From the sequence record KM606994: 64,000 nucleotides of DNA, one strand, 5' to 3'. A model generated the notes under the pieces. The model saw nothing but the letters and a program-made list of their open reading frames with translations. It was not told where the DNA came from and did not search any database. Positions 14,069 through 23,114 of this stretch are shown in pieces (position 1 is the stretch's first letter; every line of letters starts with the position of its first letter). The position numbers and the translations under genes are program-made. Source of the stretch: Escherichia phage RB3.

Positions 14069-14098
14069 ACTATAACACAACACGAGGGACTTGTAAAC
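14069..14098 (-). promoter_or_regulatory. T4-type early promoter
   Basis: Minus strand GTTTAC-18 nt-TATAGT, then ACTTACTGACATAACATGAGGA leader. Confidence 0.6.
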
Positions 14099-16155
14099 TA
14101 CATTTTGAACTTTTTAGACATTCCGTTGATGTTAACCAAAGAAGCTAATATTTGAGAAACTTCGTTTTCCTCTTCTTTTGATTCTTCTACAAGGAATTGA
14201 TTAAATCCAGCCATTGGACGAACTTCACCAGTTTCCATTAAATGGTCTCCATCATATACTGATTCTTCTAATTGTTCAGAAGGAGGAACGATTGTACCTT
14301 CGATTAGATACTTGTTATAAGCAGTTTCTTTCATAAAGTACGTACTTACTTTATTAATCTTCAGTAAAATTCCGCGCGGTAGAATAACTTCAGCTTCTGA
14401 TGGAAATCCTGATAAATGACCTGGAACGATAACTTTGATTCGCTCAGCTCCTTTAATTACCATACCCACGCTAGTTTCAGCATCTTCATTAGCATATGTA
14501 GAATGACTACCCATATGCATCAAATCTTCTGCATCAACGGAACCTTCTCCTTCACCAGAAAATACTGCGCCGGAATCATCTAGAGCCATATAGTTTTTAC
14601 CATGCTCACCGAAGATATTTGGTTTAAGCGATGTGGATACGAAGTTCTTGAAATAGAACATTTTGTTTTCAATGTTATGACGCAAAGTTTTAAAGGTAAC
14701 TTCTTGTCCACGATAAAGCGTAGTTCCTGGAGGAAGAACTGAACCTTTAGCGAATGCAGAATCAAGCGTCTCAATATGTTTAATAGCTCGTTCCATATAT
14801 TCTTCACGGGTAGAATCTGGTTTACCCAAAAGGAACGAGTTCATTTCAACATATGAATCTGCACAATAATCTTCAATTACATCAGATTCAGCTTGAGTTA
14901 ATCCTTTTGGAGTTACTTCGGTGCTTGCGTATTCATATGCCTGGGCAGCAGATTCATTAATCAATTTATAAATGCCATTCATGACAAATTGAATAATAGC
15001 TGTCTTTTCATCTGGCGTAGCTTTAGAACCTTTAACTAAATCATTAATAATTTTCTTAATAACATCAAAGCTATTAGAAATATTAATGTCAGCAAGATCG
15101 CTTAAAATTTTATCAGTTTTATAATCAAAGAATTCTTTATTCTTTAAATATTCTTGAGAACCTTGATACGATATATCGCTCTGCAACTTGATAGATGGAT
15201 CACGTAAACGTGCATGGGCTAATGCAATATGATTTCGGAAACTTTCTAGTTCATAATCGTTAGATTTAAAACGAGAAGCACTTCTCATACCACCGATAGC
15301 TCCTTTGCCGAAGTTTGAACCAATCTGAATAACGCCAGAGTTCATTGGTCCTTCTGCTTTATATACCGGAACTTTAGATTCAAACTCTTGATATTTCTTG
15401 GCAGCGAAGCTATCACCCTGAAGTGAAGCATCGACAGTAGAATATTGAGCTTGTGCTGCTAATCGACGACTAATTTTAGTTTTTTGAATAACAGCTTGAT
15501 CCGTGCGCTTATCATTTTCTAAAGCAATAGAAGCAGCAACAGCGACAGCTTTAGGAACAGCATTACCTGTTTTAACATCTACATAAACATCACCGACCTT
15601 TGATTCAACTTTTGTGAATAACTCAGTTGAAATAGGAGGTACACCTGGAATGTCTTCTAAATTGGCATTTTTACGGTAAACCATAATATATGCATACTTT
15701 TTATCATAGTCCCAGATTTCCTTTAAAAGAACATATCGACCTGCTCCTTTAGTACGTACTAAACGGTCAGCAATAACTTGCATTTGACGAGCAGCGCCAT
15801 TTGTTTTACTTTTTAGTACGCGGAATAGGCATGCGTCAATTTTATACTGTTTCATTGTTTGAAGAGCAGTATCAAAAACAGCATTAATGACGCCAATTGG
15901 ATTTCCACCCAAGTTTCTAAGCTTAACCAGCGATAATTTCTCGTTGACACCTATCATTACGATATGCATCATTTTATCGCCTGGCTTAACGTTTTTATTC
16001 GTATCACCACCAGAGGTGTATGTACAAAATCTAAATCCAGGAAGCACGCTTTCTTCGCCGGCTTGAATAGCAAAAATTTGTGGTATTTTATGCTTAGGAT
16101 TTAAGTTAACAACCGGCGCCGAAGCGCCGTCAAATAATTCTGTAATAAGTTCCAT
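14098..16155 (-). CDS. Alt-family ADP-ribosyltransferase paralog (downstream copy)
   Basis: 685 aa; N-terminus MELITELFD and first ~400 aa clearly paralogous to the neighbouring alt; ART-type motifs YRGQ, FVSTS, SEAEV. Confidence 0.75.
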   Translation of the reverse strand: MELITELFDGASAPVVNLNPKHKIPQIFAIQAGEESVLPGFRFCTYTSGGDTNKNVKPGDKMMHIVMIGVNEKLSLVKLRNLGGNPIGVINAVFDTALQTMKQYKIDACLFRVLKSKTNGAARQMQVIADRLVRTKGAGRYVLLKEIWDYDKKYAYIMVYRKNANLEDIPGVPPISTELFTKVESKVGDVYVDVKTGNAVPKAVAVAASIALENDKRTDQAVIQKTKISRRLAAQAQYSTVDASLQGDSFAAKKYQEFESKVPVYKAEGPMNSGVIQIGSNFGKGAIGGMRSASRFKSNDYELESFRNHIALAHARLRDPSIKLQSDISYQGSQEYLKNKEFFDYKTDKILSDLADINISNSFDVIKKIINDLVKGSKATPDEKTAIIQFVMNGIYKLINESAAQAYEYASTEVTPKGLTQAESDVIEDYCADSYVEMNSFLLGKPDSTREEYMERAIKHIETLDSAFAKGSVLPPGTTLYRGQEVTFKTLRHNIENKMFYFKNFVSTSLKPNIFGEHGKNYMALDDSGAVFSGEGEGSVDAEDLMHMGSHSTYANEDAETSVGMVIKGAERIKVIVPGHLSGFPSEAEVILPRGILLKINKVSTYFMKETAYNKYLIEGTIVPPSEQLEESVYDGDHLMETGEVRPMAGFNQFLVEESKEEENEVSQILASLVNINGMSKKFKM

Positions 16156-16158
16156 GAT

Positions 16159-18255
16159 TTATCCTTGAACGAACTTGTAAGGCATGTTTGTAATATCTAT
16201 GCAAGACGCAATAATTCCAAGAGATGATTCTGCTTTCTGTTTAACGTTTGATGAAACAAATGATGCAAAGTCAACTCTGTCTTCTATTTCAATATCACCT
16301 GTCATTGCAACTACTTCACCGGTTTCCATTAAATGGTCTCCGTCATAGATTACCGATTCGGTGAGTTCTTCGGTGGTCATAACTTCAGCTTGAATGAGTT
16401 TTGTATTATTAGATGTTGTTCCGTCATTATTAGAAGCATCAGTTATTTTATTAACTTTGACCATCAATCCACGCGGTAGAATAACTTCAGCTTCTGTTGC
16501 TATTCCGAGACTTCCTGGATATACAACATTAACTTTATGAGCTCCATCAATTGCCCATCCTATTTGAACTTTAACGTATTCAGGATTTTCTTTATACGCT
16601 CTTATTTCGTTTGGATTAATAGTTATTCCTTCTTCATTTTTATCAACTGTTAATTCATTGCGAGCTTCTGGTTCTAAAAGACCAATACCAGCATGTGTAA
16701 TTCCAAAACGTCCAAAAATGATAGGAGTTAAAGAAGTAGATACAAAATTTCTGAAATAGAACACTTTATTTTTAACTAGTGCTTCGTATATAGGAGCAGT
16801 CATACTTTGAGCACGATAAACTGTAATGCCTTCTGGTATACGGTCACCATTTTCAAAAGCTGAATCTAAATTATTTATCGCAGATTCAATTTCTTTTTCA
16901 CTCATTACATCATATCGTTCTGGATTGTAGCGGCCTAAAAGAAGATTATTGATGTCAGTATATCCTGATCCACAATACTCTCTAATACCGCGCTTTTGCG
17001 ATGGAGTATATTTAGAACCATCACGGGCAATAGTAATATCAATCATTGGACCTGCACCAATTCCAGAAAAACTATAAATCATTCGTTTGAGGAATTTAGT
17101 TTTTGCTGAGTTCCAAGAATTTTTAGTTATTTCTTCCCAGACTTCATCTGGCTGCCCTTTACGAGTTTTATTATGTTTATCAAGCCAATTATCTTTATAT
17201 TCTTCAAAGAATTGATTAACAGCTGCTGCGTATTTCTCTAAACATTTTATTGAAGTAGTTGGTTCATTTTTAATCGCATTAAGAATTACATCTTTAATTT
17301 TTTCAGAAACTTCATTAACCTCACTTTTTGAAAAGAATTTATAGTCATAGTGAAGTTCATCTGCGGTTCCTTCGGCAATGATTTTTGCTGCCTTAGTTTT
17401 AGAAGCTAATGAATTAATTCCAAGCTTCATTTCTTCTGCTTCGGGAATTAAAGGAGCAGTAGCAGGTTTATTGAAATTAGCTGCGGTAGATTCATACTTC
17501 TGGAATAATTCACTTTCAAATCTAGAAGACTCTAACGATTGACTTTGTGCAATTGCTCTACGTGAAATTTTAACTTTAACGATTACAGCTTGGTCAGAAC
17601 GTTTATCATTTTCTTGCGCAATAGATGCTGCAATTGCCTCATTTTTAGTTACTTGGGCTCCAGTATCTTTATTGATATAAACATCACCGACCTTCGATTC
17701 AACTTTAGTAAAGAGCTCAGTACTAATTTCCGGAACTCCCGGAATGTCTTCTAGTGATACATTTTTGCGATGTATAAGAATATATGCATACTTTTTATCG
17801 TAATCCCAGAGTTCCTTAAGAAGGACGTATCTGCCACCTGAACGACTGCGGATGAGTCTATCAGCAATAAGTTGAATTTGTCGAGCTTGACCGGCGGTTT
17901 TAGACTTAAGAATACGAAGCATGCAGGCATCAATTTTATACTGACGCATTGTTTGCATTGCAACAGTAAAAACCGAATTGATATAATTAATTGGGCTTGG
18001 ACCAAGACCTTTCAATTTAGCAATTGAACCTTTAGCGGTTAATGTAAAAGGAACAATATGCATCATTTTATCGCCCATTTTTAAATCGCGATTAGTATCA
18101 CCTCCAGATGTATAGGTACATAAACGAAAGCCTGGTTGTTCAATTGCATCATCAACATGAACTGAAAAAATTTGCGGTATTTTCTTCTTTGGATTTAAGT
18201 TTGTAATCGGAAGAGTAGTATCTTCGTCAAATAATTCTGTAATAAGTTCCATCAT
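16159..18255 (-). CDS. alt: Alt ADP-ribosyltransferase, probably capsid-packaged
   Basis: 698 aa (start may be the second Met); motifs YRAQ, FVSTS, ATEAEV; late promoter ~20 nt upstream; next to DNA ligase as in T4. Confidence 0.8.
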   Translation of the reverse strand: MMELITELFDEDTTLPITNLNPKKKIPQIFSVHVDDAIEQPGFRLCTYTSGGDTNRDLKMGDKMMHIVPFTLTAKGSIAKLKGLGPSPINYINSVFTVAMQTMRQYKIDACMLRILKSKTAGQARQIQLIADRLIRSRSGGRYVLLKELWDYDKKYAYILIHRKNVSLEDIPGVPEISTELFTKVESKVGDVYINKDTGAQVTKNEAIAASIAQENDKRSDQAVIVKVKISRRAIAQSQSLESSRFESELFQKYESTAANFNKPATAPLIPEAEEMKLGINSLASKTKAAKIIAEGTADELHYDYKFFSKSEVNEVSEKIKDVILNAIKNEPTTSIKCLEKYAAAVNQFFEEYKDNWLDKHNKTRKGQPDEVWEEITKNSWNSAKTKFLKRMIYSFSGIGAGPMIDITIARDGSKYTPSQKRGIREYCGSGYTDINNLLLGRYNPERYDVMSEKEIESAINNLDSAFENGDRIPEGITVYRAQSMTAPIYEALVKNKVFYFRNFVSTSLTPIIFGRFGITHAGIGLLEPEARNELTVDKNEEGITINPNEIRAYKENPEYVKVQIGWAIDGAHKVNVVYPGSLGIATEAEVILPRGLMVKVNKITDASNNDGTTSNNTKLIQAEVMTTEELTESVIYDGDHLMETGEVVAMTGDIEIEDRVDFASFVSSNVKQKAESSLGIIASCIDITNMPYKFVQG

Positions 18256-18285: not shown

Positions 18286-18306
18286 ATTAAAGGCCCGAAG
18301 GCCTTT
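18286..18306 (-). terminator. hairpin/terminator between the 62-aa ORF and alt late promoter
   Basis: AAAGGCC-UUCG-GGCCUUU on minus strand followed by T-rich tract. Confidence 0.5.
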
Positions 18307-18493
18307 AGTAATCTAGTGGTAAGAGAGTACGATATATTTCAAACTTCGGTCCTTTTTCATAGGCATCAAATGTTTCTGTAAATTTGTTATAAGCGTATGC
18401 ATCTACAAATTCGAGAATGACTTGTGATACAGAAGTAGAAACATCTCCACCTTCTTTTTGAGCAATGACAATTGTTTCTAAGTAAGCTTTCAT
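18305..18493 (-). CDS. hypothetical protein
   Basis: ORF track 62 aa between ligase and alt. Confidence 0.45.
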   Translation of the reverse strand: MKAYLETIVIAQKEGGDVSTSVSQVILEFVDAYAYNKFTETFDAYEKGPKFEIYRTLLPLDY

Positions 18494-19953
18494 AGACCAG
18501 TTACCTCATGAAAATCACCAAATACATCCTCGAATGTATTAGCTTTAGTTTTATCTTCACGTAAACGAATCGCAATCGGAAGAAATAATTTAACGTAATC
18601 AGTGCGGCCATCAGATTTTAACCAACCGTTGCATTCGCACTCTAGAATTTTTCCAATATAATAATTTTGGTTTTCCATAATGCGAGTACGGTCAAGTTCA
18701 TGCGATTTTACACCGGCTTTATCTTTTAAGCCTGAACCAGCATTTACTTTAATTTTTCCACACTCTGACTCAAGAATAAATCCACCTGCTTTAGTAGGGT
18801 CTTTACGGTGAGGATAAATTCCTACAATTTTTAAATCAACATCAATTACTTCTTTAAATTTATAGAGATTTTTTGAACGAGCATTTTCCCATAATCCATC
18901 GATATTTTTGAGAATAATACCTTCAAGACCTTGGTCAATATACTTTTTATAAATTACCTTAGCTTCATCTAAGTTATTTACTACTTGGTTTTCAATTAAA
19001 ATTACTTTATCATATCCTGATGTCATTTGTTCTAGTTTAGAAAAACGTACATCATATTTCAAACGAAATGCAGGAAGACCGTATATTTCTACCAACGGTA
19101 CATAATCCCAGACCTGAAACTTCATGCACTGTGCTTCTTTTTCAGAAATGGTTCCCTTTAAAGATTTATTGGCGATGCCATTAGATGCAGTACGTGATTC
19201 AGCTACTTCGGCGAATTCTTTAGCTTTACTAATTTCAGGATAAGCATCAAAAAGAAAATCTAGGCCTTCTGGCTCCTTTTTAACTTGCTCATGGTATACC
19301 AATTCGCCATCAATTAACACACCTTCTGGATGAATCTGGCGGGCTTCAGCGGTCATTTTGATTAACTCTTCCTTAAGAAGATCTAATCCTAGATATTCAT
19401 TACCAGCTCGTGATAAAAGACGAACATCATCTAATTCATCACCTCTAACTTCAGCAAAACACCGAGCTCCATCAGCTTTTAACTGGGCAAAAGCTGGAAA
19501 TTTGATATTCTTATTAATGCCTTTTTCATCATAAGAACTTGCAAGCATTTGAGGTTGTTCAGGAATTAAACCTGGCCAAACTTTGTTTGCAATAGATACC
19601 GAAGCACCGCATTCAAGGTCTCGCATCATCACCCGACGCAAAACTTCAACATCATCTTTTTTACCGTCAGTAATATATCCAGTTAATTCCTCAATTGCCG
19701 CATTTCCAGTCAATTTCCGAGTAGCTAACGTGAATTCAATGAAGTCAAGCATATCGGTAAGAGTCAACATTCCAAAACTCTGGGTAGCAATACCAGGTTT
19801 AGGCCATTTCTTGATATAATACTGTAACCCACGAGAATAAGTCAGACGATATACCCGTTTAAGCAATTCATTATCTTTATTCTTTTCAAGAATTGCTTGC
19901 TTCTGCTTAGTTGAACCAATAGATGCTATTTCGTTCAGAATTTTAAGAATCAT
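18490..19953 (-). CDS. 30: ATP-dependent DNA ligase gp30
   Basis: 487 aa, equal to T4 ligase; adenylation motif KADGAR. Confidence 0.9.
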   Translation of the reverse strand: MILKILNEIASIGSTKQKQAILEKNKDNELLKRVYRLTYSRGLQYYIKKWPKPGIATQSFGMLTLTDMLDFIEFTLATRKLTGNAAIEELTGYITDGKKDDVEVLRRVMMRDLECGASVSIANKVWPGLIPEQPQMLASSYDEKGINKNIKFPAFAQLKADGARCFAEVRGDELDDVRLLSRAGNEYLGLDLLKEELIKMTAEARQIHPEGVLIDGELVYHEQVKKEPEGLDFLFDAYPEISKAKEFAEVAESRTASNGIANKSLKGTISEKEAQCMKFQVWDYVPLVEIYGLPAFRLKYDVRFSKLEQMTSGYDKVILIENQVVNNLDEAKVIYKKYIDQGLEGIILKNIDGLWENARSKNLYKFKEVIDVDLKIVGIYPHRKDPTKAGGFILESECGKIKVNAGSGLKDKAGVKSHELDRTRIMENQNYYIGKILECECNGWLKSDGRTDYVKLFLPIAIRLREDKTKANTFEDVFGDFHEVTGL

Positions 19954-20219
19954 TGTTCATCCTTTAGAGTTTGGTTTACAGCTCTATTATAAATCAATTC
20001 ATCATTAAGCTCAGTCAAAGACCTGTGGTACGTGGTTCTAACTTTATTTCCTTGCATCCAGTGCTTGACGTAAATGAAACCTTGCTCTACACATTTTTTA
20101 AAAATTCGTTCGTCTTTTTGAGCTCGGAATTCTGGATTGCATCTAAAAAATTGATTTACGTGACCGTAATCACGTGTAGTATTACCTTCATTTTCATAAA
20201 TAGTATGAACAACAAACAT
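19950..20219 (-). CDS. hypothetical protein (30.1 position)
   Basis: ORF track 89 aa; ATGA-type overlap with ligase. Confidence 0.5.
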   Translation of the reverse strand: MFVVHTIYENEGNTTRDYGHVNQFFRCNPEFRAQKDERIFKKCVEQGFIYVKHWMQGNKVRTTYHRSLTELNDELIYNRAVNQTLKDEQ

Positions 20220-21058
20220 TAGAATGCTCCTTGGAAAATATTATCACCACTAGTAGGTCTATTATACAAATACCCTATGCCGCCAGGTTTAATATAGTTC
20301 CATGTCTGAAACGGATGTGTCTGATATGGATGATATAGATGATTATAAGGATTAAACCCAGGAGTTCTCCAGGTAGTGTTCCAAGGAAAAGAATCGTTTT
20401 TGATCATCTTCTCAATTACATCTTTTATAACTTTTTCACTATCAAAACTTTCTTTATTTTCCTTCGATGGAAAAAGCTTATTCTCTACATCATTCCATGT
20501 ATAAACTCGCTGTGCAGTTTTTGGAATACTGTCACGCTCCCCTCGAACCATCCAATAAACAGGAACATTTAATATTTCACTCGCGTGATCGCAATGGTGA
20601 GCGAGATCGTCAATATAACAAATTACGTTATATTTCTCTTTTGCCTTTTTGAACAACTCTTCTTTTGAAGAATCATGACTACACATCAGTACTTCTGAGA
20701 AGGCACCAGGAAAAAGAGCATTCAAATTAAATTGACGATTCAGCAGAGCGTCAATAGAATCACCCAATGCTGTAACAGCTACAAAATTATAATCTTCTTT
20801 TAATTTGTTAATTACACACAGGGCATCTTTATATGGAGACAAGTAACGAATAAAATCTGAACGATTGTATTTTTCAATTAACTTGACGCCAAGTTCTTCA
20901 TCACAATTAAAGAGTTTACCAGGAGAAATAAATTTCTCATCTTGGATCATTTTTAAAATATGTTCTAACGGAAGATTATATTTCTGAGCAAAATAAGGAA
21001 GGCCTGATTGCCAGCTTAAACATACTCCATCAATATCAGTTAAAATAGTAGGCTTCAT
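20219..21058 (-). CDS. HAD-superfamily hydrolase, 5'(3')-deoxyribonucleotidase-like (30.2 position)
   Basis: 279 aa; N-terminal DIDGV motif typical of HAD motif I. Confidence 0.55.
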   Translation of the reverse strand: MKPTILTDIDGVCLSWQSGLPYFAQKYNLPLEHILKMIQDEKFISPGKLFNCDEELGVKLIEKYNRSDFIRYLSPYKDALCVINKLKEDYNFVAVTALGDSIDALLNRQFNLNALFPGAFSEVLMCSHDSSKEELFKKAKEKYNVICYIDDLAHHCDHASEILNVPVYWMVRGERDSIPKTAQRVYTWNDVENKLFPSKENKESFDSEKVIKDVIEKMIKNDSFPWNTTWRTPGFNPYNHLYHPYQTHPFQTWNYIKPGGIGYLYNRPTSGDNIFQGAF

Positions 21059-21519
21059 AGAGAGTCTCTTAATAGGTTTAACACATCAATAAATTCAGCT
21101 TCAGTTAGTATTGTATCATCTTTTGTTAGACCACTAGCCATGCTGTGCTTCAAAACTTTTCCTTTCGAGGCTTGTAATGCATCACGAAAGCCCTTGTTTT
21201 GGATCGCTGCTTCAAAATATGCATTTGTATACAGCTCTTTCCACGCCGGGGAGTATCTTGAAAACGGAACTCCAATCCAGAAGAGGGTCCCACGGTCCTG
21301 AGCTCTAGCATAAGACCTTCCAGCTTGTTGGGCGGCAAGCCCGGATAACCCAAATATACGACGTTGTTGTTCAACATTTTTCACCTTGCATCCTTGGAGG
21401 AATCCTTCAAGACCTCCAAATTGAATACCATCCATAACGAAAGGCCATTGGGCGAAATTACTTAATGCACATGATGGCCACCTAAAATTGTTTCTAATCT
21501 CTAACTCAGACATTTTCAA
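21055..21519 (-). CDS. NADAR / YbiA-like (DUF1768) family protein (30.3 position)
   Basis: 154 aa; ALSNFAQWPF...DG...FGGLEGFLQGCK resembles the YbiA signature DFSNFAAWPI...DG...SEHYFQAQK. Confidence 0.55.
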   Translation of the reverse strand: MKMSELEIRNNFRWPSCALSNFAQWPFVMDGIQFGGLEGFLQGCKVKNVEQQRRIFGLSGLAAQQAGRSYARAQDRGTLFWIGVPFSRYSPAWKELYTNAYFEAAIQNKGFRDALQASKGKVLKHSMASGLTKDDTILTEAEFIDVLNLLRDSL

Positions 21520-21712
21520 TGCTTATAATTTCAACATCAGCCCAATGACCATAGCAAGGAAGACGAAATTCAACTGGCCAGTTAGGGTCCTTTTCTAATA
21601 TAATAGACTTAACTTGTGGTTCTTCATGTTCATCAGTATATGGATTTTTATCTGTTACTTTATATGTGACCTTAATGTACTGAATTCCAAAAATCTTATT
21701 AATTATATTCAT
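21506..21712 (-). CDS. hypothetical protein
   Basis: ORF track 68 aa in the 30.x early cluster. Confidence 0.45.
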   Translation of the reverse strand: MNIINKIFGIQYIKVTYKVTDKNPYTDEHEEPQVKSIILEKDPNWPVEFRLPCYGHWADVEIISIENV

Positions 21713-22666: not shown

Positions 22667-22999
22667 TTATTTTACTACTTTCCAATGCTGCATGTCAAGT
22701 TTACCAACTTTTTTCATCTTCTCAATTAAGCGTTCGGCACGTTGGCGAGCTGTAACATAATACCATTCACCTAATTCATTTTGTTCAATTTTTCCAACGA
22801 TTACTGTATTTAATTCATAAATCCAACCAGTAAAGAAATTATGAACTTGAATTGTAAAGGTGAAATCTGTTCCCATACCTTCTGTTGTTTCTACTTCAAT
22901 AATATCACCTTCAACTGCCATTAAGAACCACATAGTTTCATCATATTTACCATTGAAGCATTTAGTTTTAACTGCAGCGTTCAGATTAATCGTTTTCAT
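22667..22999 (-). CDS. hypothetical protein
   Basis: ORF track 110 aa; early promoter and AAGGAG SD upstream. Confidence 0.5.
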   Translation of the reverse strand: MKTINLNAAVKTKCFNGKYDETMWFLMAVEGDIIEVETTEGMGTDFTFTIQVHNFFTGWIYELNTVIVGKIEQNELGEWYYVTARQRAERLIEKMKKVGKLDMQHWKVVK

Positions 23000-23066: not shown

Positions 23067-23085
23067 AATCTTTGGAAAATAAAAA

Positions 23086-23114
23086 AGGACTCCCGAAGGA
23101 GTCCTCAACTTATG
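23086..23114 (-). terminator. intrinsic terminator downstream of the small basic protein gene
   Basis: GGACUCC-UUCG-GGAGUCC followed by TTTTTTATTTT on minus strand. Confidence 0.7.

Follow-up and report, generated by a model that had tools for sequence, protein, structure and literature searches.

The closest described relative of the protein considered here is gp30.3 of phage T4. With recombinant phages, Johannesman et al. (2025, PMC11825919) mapped the resistance of T2 and T4 to DarTG1 onto gene 30.3, which they renamed adfN; once the gene was deleted, neither phage formed plaques on cells carrying DarTG1. The same report describes adfN as necessary and sufficient against DarTG1 (Johannesman et al. 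2025, PMC11825919). Expression of adfN rescued phage RB69, in which a frameshift has cost the native protein its final 15 residues (PMC11825919). Purified T4 AdfN removed ADP-ribose from DarT1-modified DNA while its E36A variant did not, and rescue was weakened alike by E36A, K43A and C-terminal truncation (PMC11825919). An earlier study describes hydrolysis of guanosine-ADP-ribose on DNA by T4 gp30.3, with no hydrolysis of thymidine-ADP-ribose, and reports that the protein did not rescue E. coli from DarT1 toxicity when no phage was present (Cihlova et al. 2024, PMC11125620). Later work adds guanosine-ADP-ribose on RNA as an in vitro substrate and excludes cytidine-ADP-ribose. The T4-type AdfN is fully effective only during T-even infection and gives only weak help to non-T-even phages. 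In the published phylogeny the gp30.3 clade is closest to DarG1 and not to YbiA.

The gene analyzed here lies in a 64-kb window, by which we mean the whole stretch of phage RB3 DNA under study. The 2.5 kb of this window that was tested is 100% identical in the T4-like phages RB5, RB6, RB7, RB9 and RB10 (genus Tequatrovirus), and the whole window, judged by coordinates, corresponds to the final 64 kb of these five genomes. Synteny is as in T4 (alt.-3, alt.-2, alt, alt.1, 30, which encodes DNA ligase, 30.1, 30.2, 30.3, 30.4, 30.5 onward), and the gene order 30.4, 30.3, 30.2, 30.1, 30 is identical in RB5 and T4. The gene and its immediate surroundings are as follows.

21055..21513, minus strand: gene 30.3 (adfN) coding sequence, 152 aa, start codon ATG at 21513..21511 and stop codon TGA at 21057..21055
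21506..21513, minus strand: 8-nt overlap ATGTCTGA joining the stop of 30.4 (upstream, 21506..21712) to the start of 30.3
21055..21058, minus strand: 4-nt overlap ATGA joining the stop of 30.3 to the start of 30.2, the next gene downstream
20219..21058, minus strand: gene 30.2, 279 aa, with the N-terminal HAD-phosphatase-like motif I LTDIDGV
18490..19953: gene 30, DNA ligase, 1.1 kb from 30.3

An ORF finder had listed this reading frame as 21055..21519 (minus strand), 154 aa from a TTG codon, and a 154-aa product was claimed in the original prediction. The ORF exists, but the claimed length depended on the TTG, and the ATG start gives 152 aa. The TTG at 21519, two codons upstream of the ATG at 21513, was rejected in favor of the start that agrees with the T4 annotation and with the published residue numbering, and it is probably not used. 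The ATG at 21513 was chosen because it is the only start that places the published E36 and K43 on Glu and Lys codons. The resulting product is identical to T4 gp30.3 (NP_049816) at 149/152 positions (98%) over its full length and without gaps, with three conservative substitutions (N8S, I80L and M125I). By sequence, the ORF at 21055..21513 is gene 30.3, the RB5-group allele of T4 30.3, now named adfN for anti-DarT factor NADAR. Its product matches phrog_652 in PHROGs, where the function is given as unknown.

Annotation of this gene varies among records. RB5-group GenBank records annotate 30.3 as a 126-aa CDS starting from an internal ATG (Met27), where T4 annotates 152 aa. The shorter CDS corresponds to window positions 21055..21435 and to 125449..125829 of the RB5 record, and it lacks residues 1-26 and with them the invariant ALSNF...F portion of the NADAR motif. 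The same start miscall probably lies behind several 126-aa database clusters (P0004-P0006). In many sequenced T4-like coliphages (for example SV76, NR1, UGJNEcP4 and RPN226) the gp30.3 product is only 86-109 aa long or is fused to a neighbouring Pfam family, and short or fused entries are present in our homologue list (P0007, P0011, P0013, P0015 and P0043). These entries suggest that frameshifted or truncated adfN alleles resembling that of RB69 are common in nature, some of them perhaps being annotation artefacts. A further reading frame inside 30.3, the 75-codon ORF 30.3' in the +1 frame (21150..21377, minus strand), is intact here. The T4 annotation describes it as 'internal translation in a different reading frame'. 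Among 8 relatives at about 80% nucleotide identity, 7 keep the frame open as far as the same stop, most of them having the ATG displaced by one codon, and the other has an internal stop.

Assignment of the 30.3 product to a protein family required more than a routine domain scan. The Pfam scan gave a match to PF08010 'Phage_30_3' (E=4.5e-70, 234.3 bits against a gathering cut-off of 36, model positions 1-138 of 138) and no match to PF08719 (NADAR) at E<=1. A single-sequence phmmer search of the product against PDB sequences likewise returned no NADAR, the only match being a meaningless one to an ATP pyrophosphatase at E=1. We therefore gathered 102 homologues and aligned the 67 that were full-length. 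PF08010 was matched by 67/67 of these and PF08719 by 23/67 (best E 1.5e-7), and several JGI homologues bear the source name YbiA/DUF1768. When the profile of the 67 homologues was compared with PDB sequences, the sole match, at E=0.011, was E. coli YbiA (2b3w), with the alignment falling exactly on the motif. An AlphaFold2 model built from the family alignment (pLDDT 92.2, pTM 0.88) has the alpha+beta fold of YbiA, with a helical core flanked by small beta-hairpins. Foldseek with this model gave three NADARs as its top matches and nothing further below E=2, with E. coli YbiA among the top structures, although the sequence identity of the 30.3 product to solved NADARs is only 14-20%. The PF08719 miss is a false negative that arises from Pfam keeping the gp30.3 clade in a family of its own, PF08010, and it does not refute the assignment, since homologues, family profile and fold all tie the product to NADAR. 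The original prediction had named the lack of a significant NADAR/DUF1768 profile match as a refutation; taken at its word, this applies to the direct PF08719 scan, whereas the match is present by way of the 23 homologues and the family profile. On the strength of the transitive Pfam matches, the family profile, the fold and the conserved residues, the 30.3 product is a NADAR superfamily member, as had been predicted.

The residues and structural parts on which this family resemblance turns can be located precisely.

21385..21468, minus strand: NADAR signature block ALSNFAQWPFVMDGIQFGGLEGFLQGCK, residues 16-43, aligned to YbiA FSNFAAWPIKVDGKTWPTSEHYFQAQKF by the family profile
21406..21408, minus strand: codon GAA of catalytic Glu36, within the signature block
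21385..21387, minus strand: codon AAG of phosphate-binding Lys43, within the signature block
21145..21147, minus strand: codon CAC of His123, in the last strand and invariant among the 67 homologues
21061..21102, minus strand: C-terminal alpha-helix, residues 138-151 of the AlphaFold2 model (pLDDT 90-96 over blocks of residues 131-150)

The motif comprises S18-N19-F20, W23-P24, D28-G29 and E36-G-F-L-Q40-G-C-K43. The predicted elements SNF, WP, DG, E, Q and K are all present, but the last part had been worded as E..FQ..K and the real string is E.F.Q..K. The spacing from E to Q (+4) and from E to K (+7) equals that of YbiA E-H-Y-F-Q-A-Q-K, the sole shift being that of the Phe by one position. 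Comparison at the family level indicates that this likeness to YbiA is not chance, because the 67-homologue profile aligns the stretch to YbiA and 23/67 homologues reach Pfam NADAR. Residues A16, L17, S18, N19, F20, F25, E36, G37, F38, L39 and Q40 are invariant among the 67 homologues, while D28, G29 and K43 are conserved in at least 90% of them. E36 and K43 align by the family profile to the E and K of YbiA SEHYFQAQK, so that the catalytic residues expected by the original prediction are indeed in place. The Glu and Lys of the same E...Q..K helix are E43/K50 in PnNADAR and E88/K95 in E. coli C7. As for the last strand, the literature places a Glu there in the YbiA family and an Asp in DarG1/BC4488 NADARs, while His at this position sets the phage gp30.3 clade apart. 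The alignment of one homologue (P0082) with YbiA stops one residue short of this His, and the YbiA Glu follows 'KLV'. Extending the alignment by one residue would set His123 opposite the YbiA last-strand Glu. The C-terminal helix, lost in the frameshifted and inactive RB69 allele, is intact here.

Taken together, we consider it about 93% probable that RB3 30.3 encodes a minimal single-domain NADAR-fold glycohydrolase with the anti-DarTG1 role of T4 AdfN. Identity to T4 gp30.3, the NADAR fold, conservation of residues and full length were observed directly for this allele, and by analogy with the T4 enzyme it should behave as the T4 allele does. The same mechanism can be assigned with high confidence because the allele retains each feature that the published studies found to be required, namely E36, K43, H123 and a complete C-terminal helix. 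According to this mechanism, infection of a DarTG1-bearing host would lead the DarT1 toxin to add ADP-ribose to guanine in phage DNA, blocking replication. AdfN would then cut the guanine-ribose N-glycosidic bond and return the DNA to its unmodified form, whereupon replication would go on. Catalysis would involve Glu36, Lys43 (in contact with the ADP-ribose phosphate) and the clade-specific His123. The original prediction had raised a counter-defence role against DarT-type DNA ADP-ribosylation, and this role has been experimentally demonstrated for the T4 allele.

Expression of adfN would probably occur within an early block running from 30.7 to 30, with translational coupling to 30.4 and 30.2; the 30.4/30.3 overlap ATGTCTGA suggests coupling at the upstream junction. 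A promoter and terminator scan of the region returned the following sites.

22698..22669, minus strand: near-consensus sigma-70 site TTGACA-18-TAAAAT (11/12), at the 3' end of 30.8 and just upstream of 30.7
23106..23085, minus strand: strong terminator-like hairpin with T-run, after 30.9
18307..18288, minus strand: strong terminator-like hairpin with T-run, after alt.1 and between the ligase block and alt

The sigma-70 site and the two hairpins would bound a 30.7-to-alt.1 early transcription unit that includes adfN. This unit is merely suggestive because overall site counts in the scan were at chance level, which makes the individual sites hints only.

The alternative that survives best extends the anti-DarTG1 explanation and does not contradict it. 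The enzyme may be a broader nucleic-acid de-ADP-ribosylase whose main substrates are other guanine-linked ADP-ribose adducts (on RNA or tRNA, or made by other DarT1 variants or further guanine-targeting toxins), DarTG1 being just one of the systems countered. In vitro, T4 NADAR strips such adducts from RNA as well as DNA, and the authors of the work on AdfN propose a versatility that comes from acting on the adduct rather than on the toxin. The family is also widespread in large phages, with 227 confirmed IMG/VR loci and variable neighbours. No defence based on guanosine-ADP-ribose on RNA has been demonstrated to be countered by AdfN, however, and we regard this broader role as possible but rather unlikely.

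To return to the anti-DarTG1 reading, stand-alone hydrolysis is an incomplete account of it because the T4 protein fails in uninfected E. coli and helps non-T-even phages weakly. One candidate for the T-even potentiating factor is the product of a neighbouring gene, either the HAD-like 30.2 product or the 68-aa 30.4 product, in which case AdfN would act as one partner in a repair module of two components. The positional support for such a module consists of the ATGA and ATGTCTGA overlaps. The 30.2 product has a weak PNKP-phosphatase HAD match (E=0.2, Pfam) and corresponds to phrog_420, with phrog_415, a polynucleotide kinase, matched at E=0.0033. Conservation of these neighbours was examined at gp30.3-family loci from IMG/VR. 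Eighty such loci were fetched with up to 10 kb on each side, made up of 14 close loci (>=80% identity) and 66 distant loci (36-45% identity), and tblastn queries with 19 window neighbours plus T4 ModA and ModB were run against them. At 6/66 distant loci a 30.2 homologue accompanies the gp30.3 homologue, in every case with ligase synteny, while homologues of 30.4 were found in 0/66. These counts disfavor an obligatory family-wide partnership and do not disfavor one specific to Tequatrovirus. We consider the two-component module improbable.

The same loci bear on the suggestion that 30.3 is paired with the ADP-ribosyltransferases encoded nearby.

16159..18252, minus strand: alt, PF03496 E=1.9e-37, 2.8 kb from 30.3
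14098..16155, minus strand: alt.-2, a full-length 685-aa Alt paralogue, PF03496 E=6e-20, 4.9 kb from 30.3

Two such genes had been placed within about 3 kb of 30.3, which is true of alt and not of alt.-2. As an observation in its own right, RB3 has a tandem pair of intact Alt-type transferases, where T4 retains at the alt.-2 position just two short pieces, alt.-1 and alt.-2, which its annotation describes as a duplication that has decayed. A writer/eraser pairing would have the NADAR reverse ADP-ribosylation by the phage Alt and Alt.-2 (or by ModA and ModB), either tuning host-protein modification or clearing off-target marks. Both transferase genes are on the same strand as 30.3, and some T4-like phages encode NADARs together with ARTs among their early genes (Iyer et al. 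2022). Nevertheless, an Alt-type gene is found within 10 kb at 12/14 close loci and at only 2/66 distant loci, and a ModA or ModB homologue within 10 kb at 0/14 close and 0/66 distant loci by tblastn. When ORFs lying up to 4 kb from the distant homologues were clustered de novo, no family of true neighbours was shared by more than 7 of the 66 loci, the larger clusters there being overlapping alternative-frame ORFs inside the gp30.3 gene itself, and a conserved toxin-like neighbour was found at neither close nor distant loci. Because no neighbour is conserved in the distant loci, the writer/eraser and operon-partner ideas are unsupported, and the Alt neighbourhood is lineage-specific synteny. 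The residue that Alt modifies is arginine. Its target is a protein, RNA polymerase, according to the T4 record annotation, whereas the T4 NADAR activities reported in the accessible literature are on guanine-linked ADP-ribose in DNA or RNA alone, with none on T- or C-linked adducts, and we found there no report of a protein ADP-ribosylation test. In addition, the phenotype of the adfN deletion is wholly accounted for by DarTG1, the hairpin at 18307..18288 parts the gene 30 block from alt, and Alt, by the record annotations, travels inside the capsid and enters the host together with the DNA, unlike the products of that block. The pairing with Alt is therefore very improbable, and this part of the original prediction is not supported.

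Equally little weight falls on a YbiA-like metabolic N-glycosidase whose substrates would be reactive intermediates of the riboflavin pathway or soluble signals derived from ADP-ribose rather than macromolecular adducts. In its favor, E. coli YbiA is among the top structural matches and is reported active on riboflavin intermediates. Against it, the YbiA-family last-strand Glu is an invariant His in the gp30.3 family, the T4 allele has been shown to remove ADP-ribose directly from DNA and to have a phage phenotype specific to DarTG1, and the published phylogeny sets the clade nearest DarG1.

The anti-DarTG1 reading concerns a gene that is already known. T4 gp30.3 was characterized in 2024-2025, and the RB3 gene adds no new biology. 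AdfN is nonetheless a textbook-grade case of a lytic phage using an orphan antitoxin-like enzyme to erase chemically the DNA mark of a defence. A short motif alone revealed a function that was established by experiment only in 2024-2025, and the Pfam split between PF08010 and PF08719 conceals the NADAR kinship from a routine domain scan.

Comparison with the known NADAR systems places the RB3 protein among them. E. coli YbiA (2b3w, PF08719) shares 20% identity with the 30.3 product and differs from it by the last-strand Glu that is His here, by its housekeeping or SOS-operon context and by its activity on riboflavin intermediates. DarG1, the DarT1-linked NADAR antitoxin (G. lovleyi 8bat and the E. 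coli C7 NADAR), carries an N-terminal extension and a DNA-binding channel, whereas the phage protein lacks both and consists of the core domain only (152 aa). DarG1 also has a catalytic Asp where gp30.3 has His, and it is encoded beside DarT1 while gp30.3 has no DarT neighbour. Furthermore, DarG1 acts as an antitoxin, which the T4-type protein does not do in uninfected cells. The 30.3 product thus works like DarG1 but is outside the DarG1 clade. AdfN-Bas32 (T5-like) and AdfN-Bas60 (Vequintavirinae) are, like 30.3, orphan phage NADARs that act specifically on guanine adducts and protect against DarTG1. They belong to other, independently acquired NADAR clades and, unlike the T4-type protein, neutralise DarT1 without phage infection. 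T4 gp30.3, AdfN itself, occupies the same place between 30.4 and 30.2 by the DNA ligase gene 30, has the same length of 152 aa, and has E36, K43, H123 and the C-terminal helix in common with the RB3 protein.
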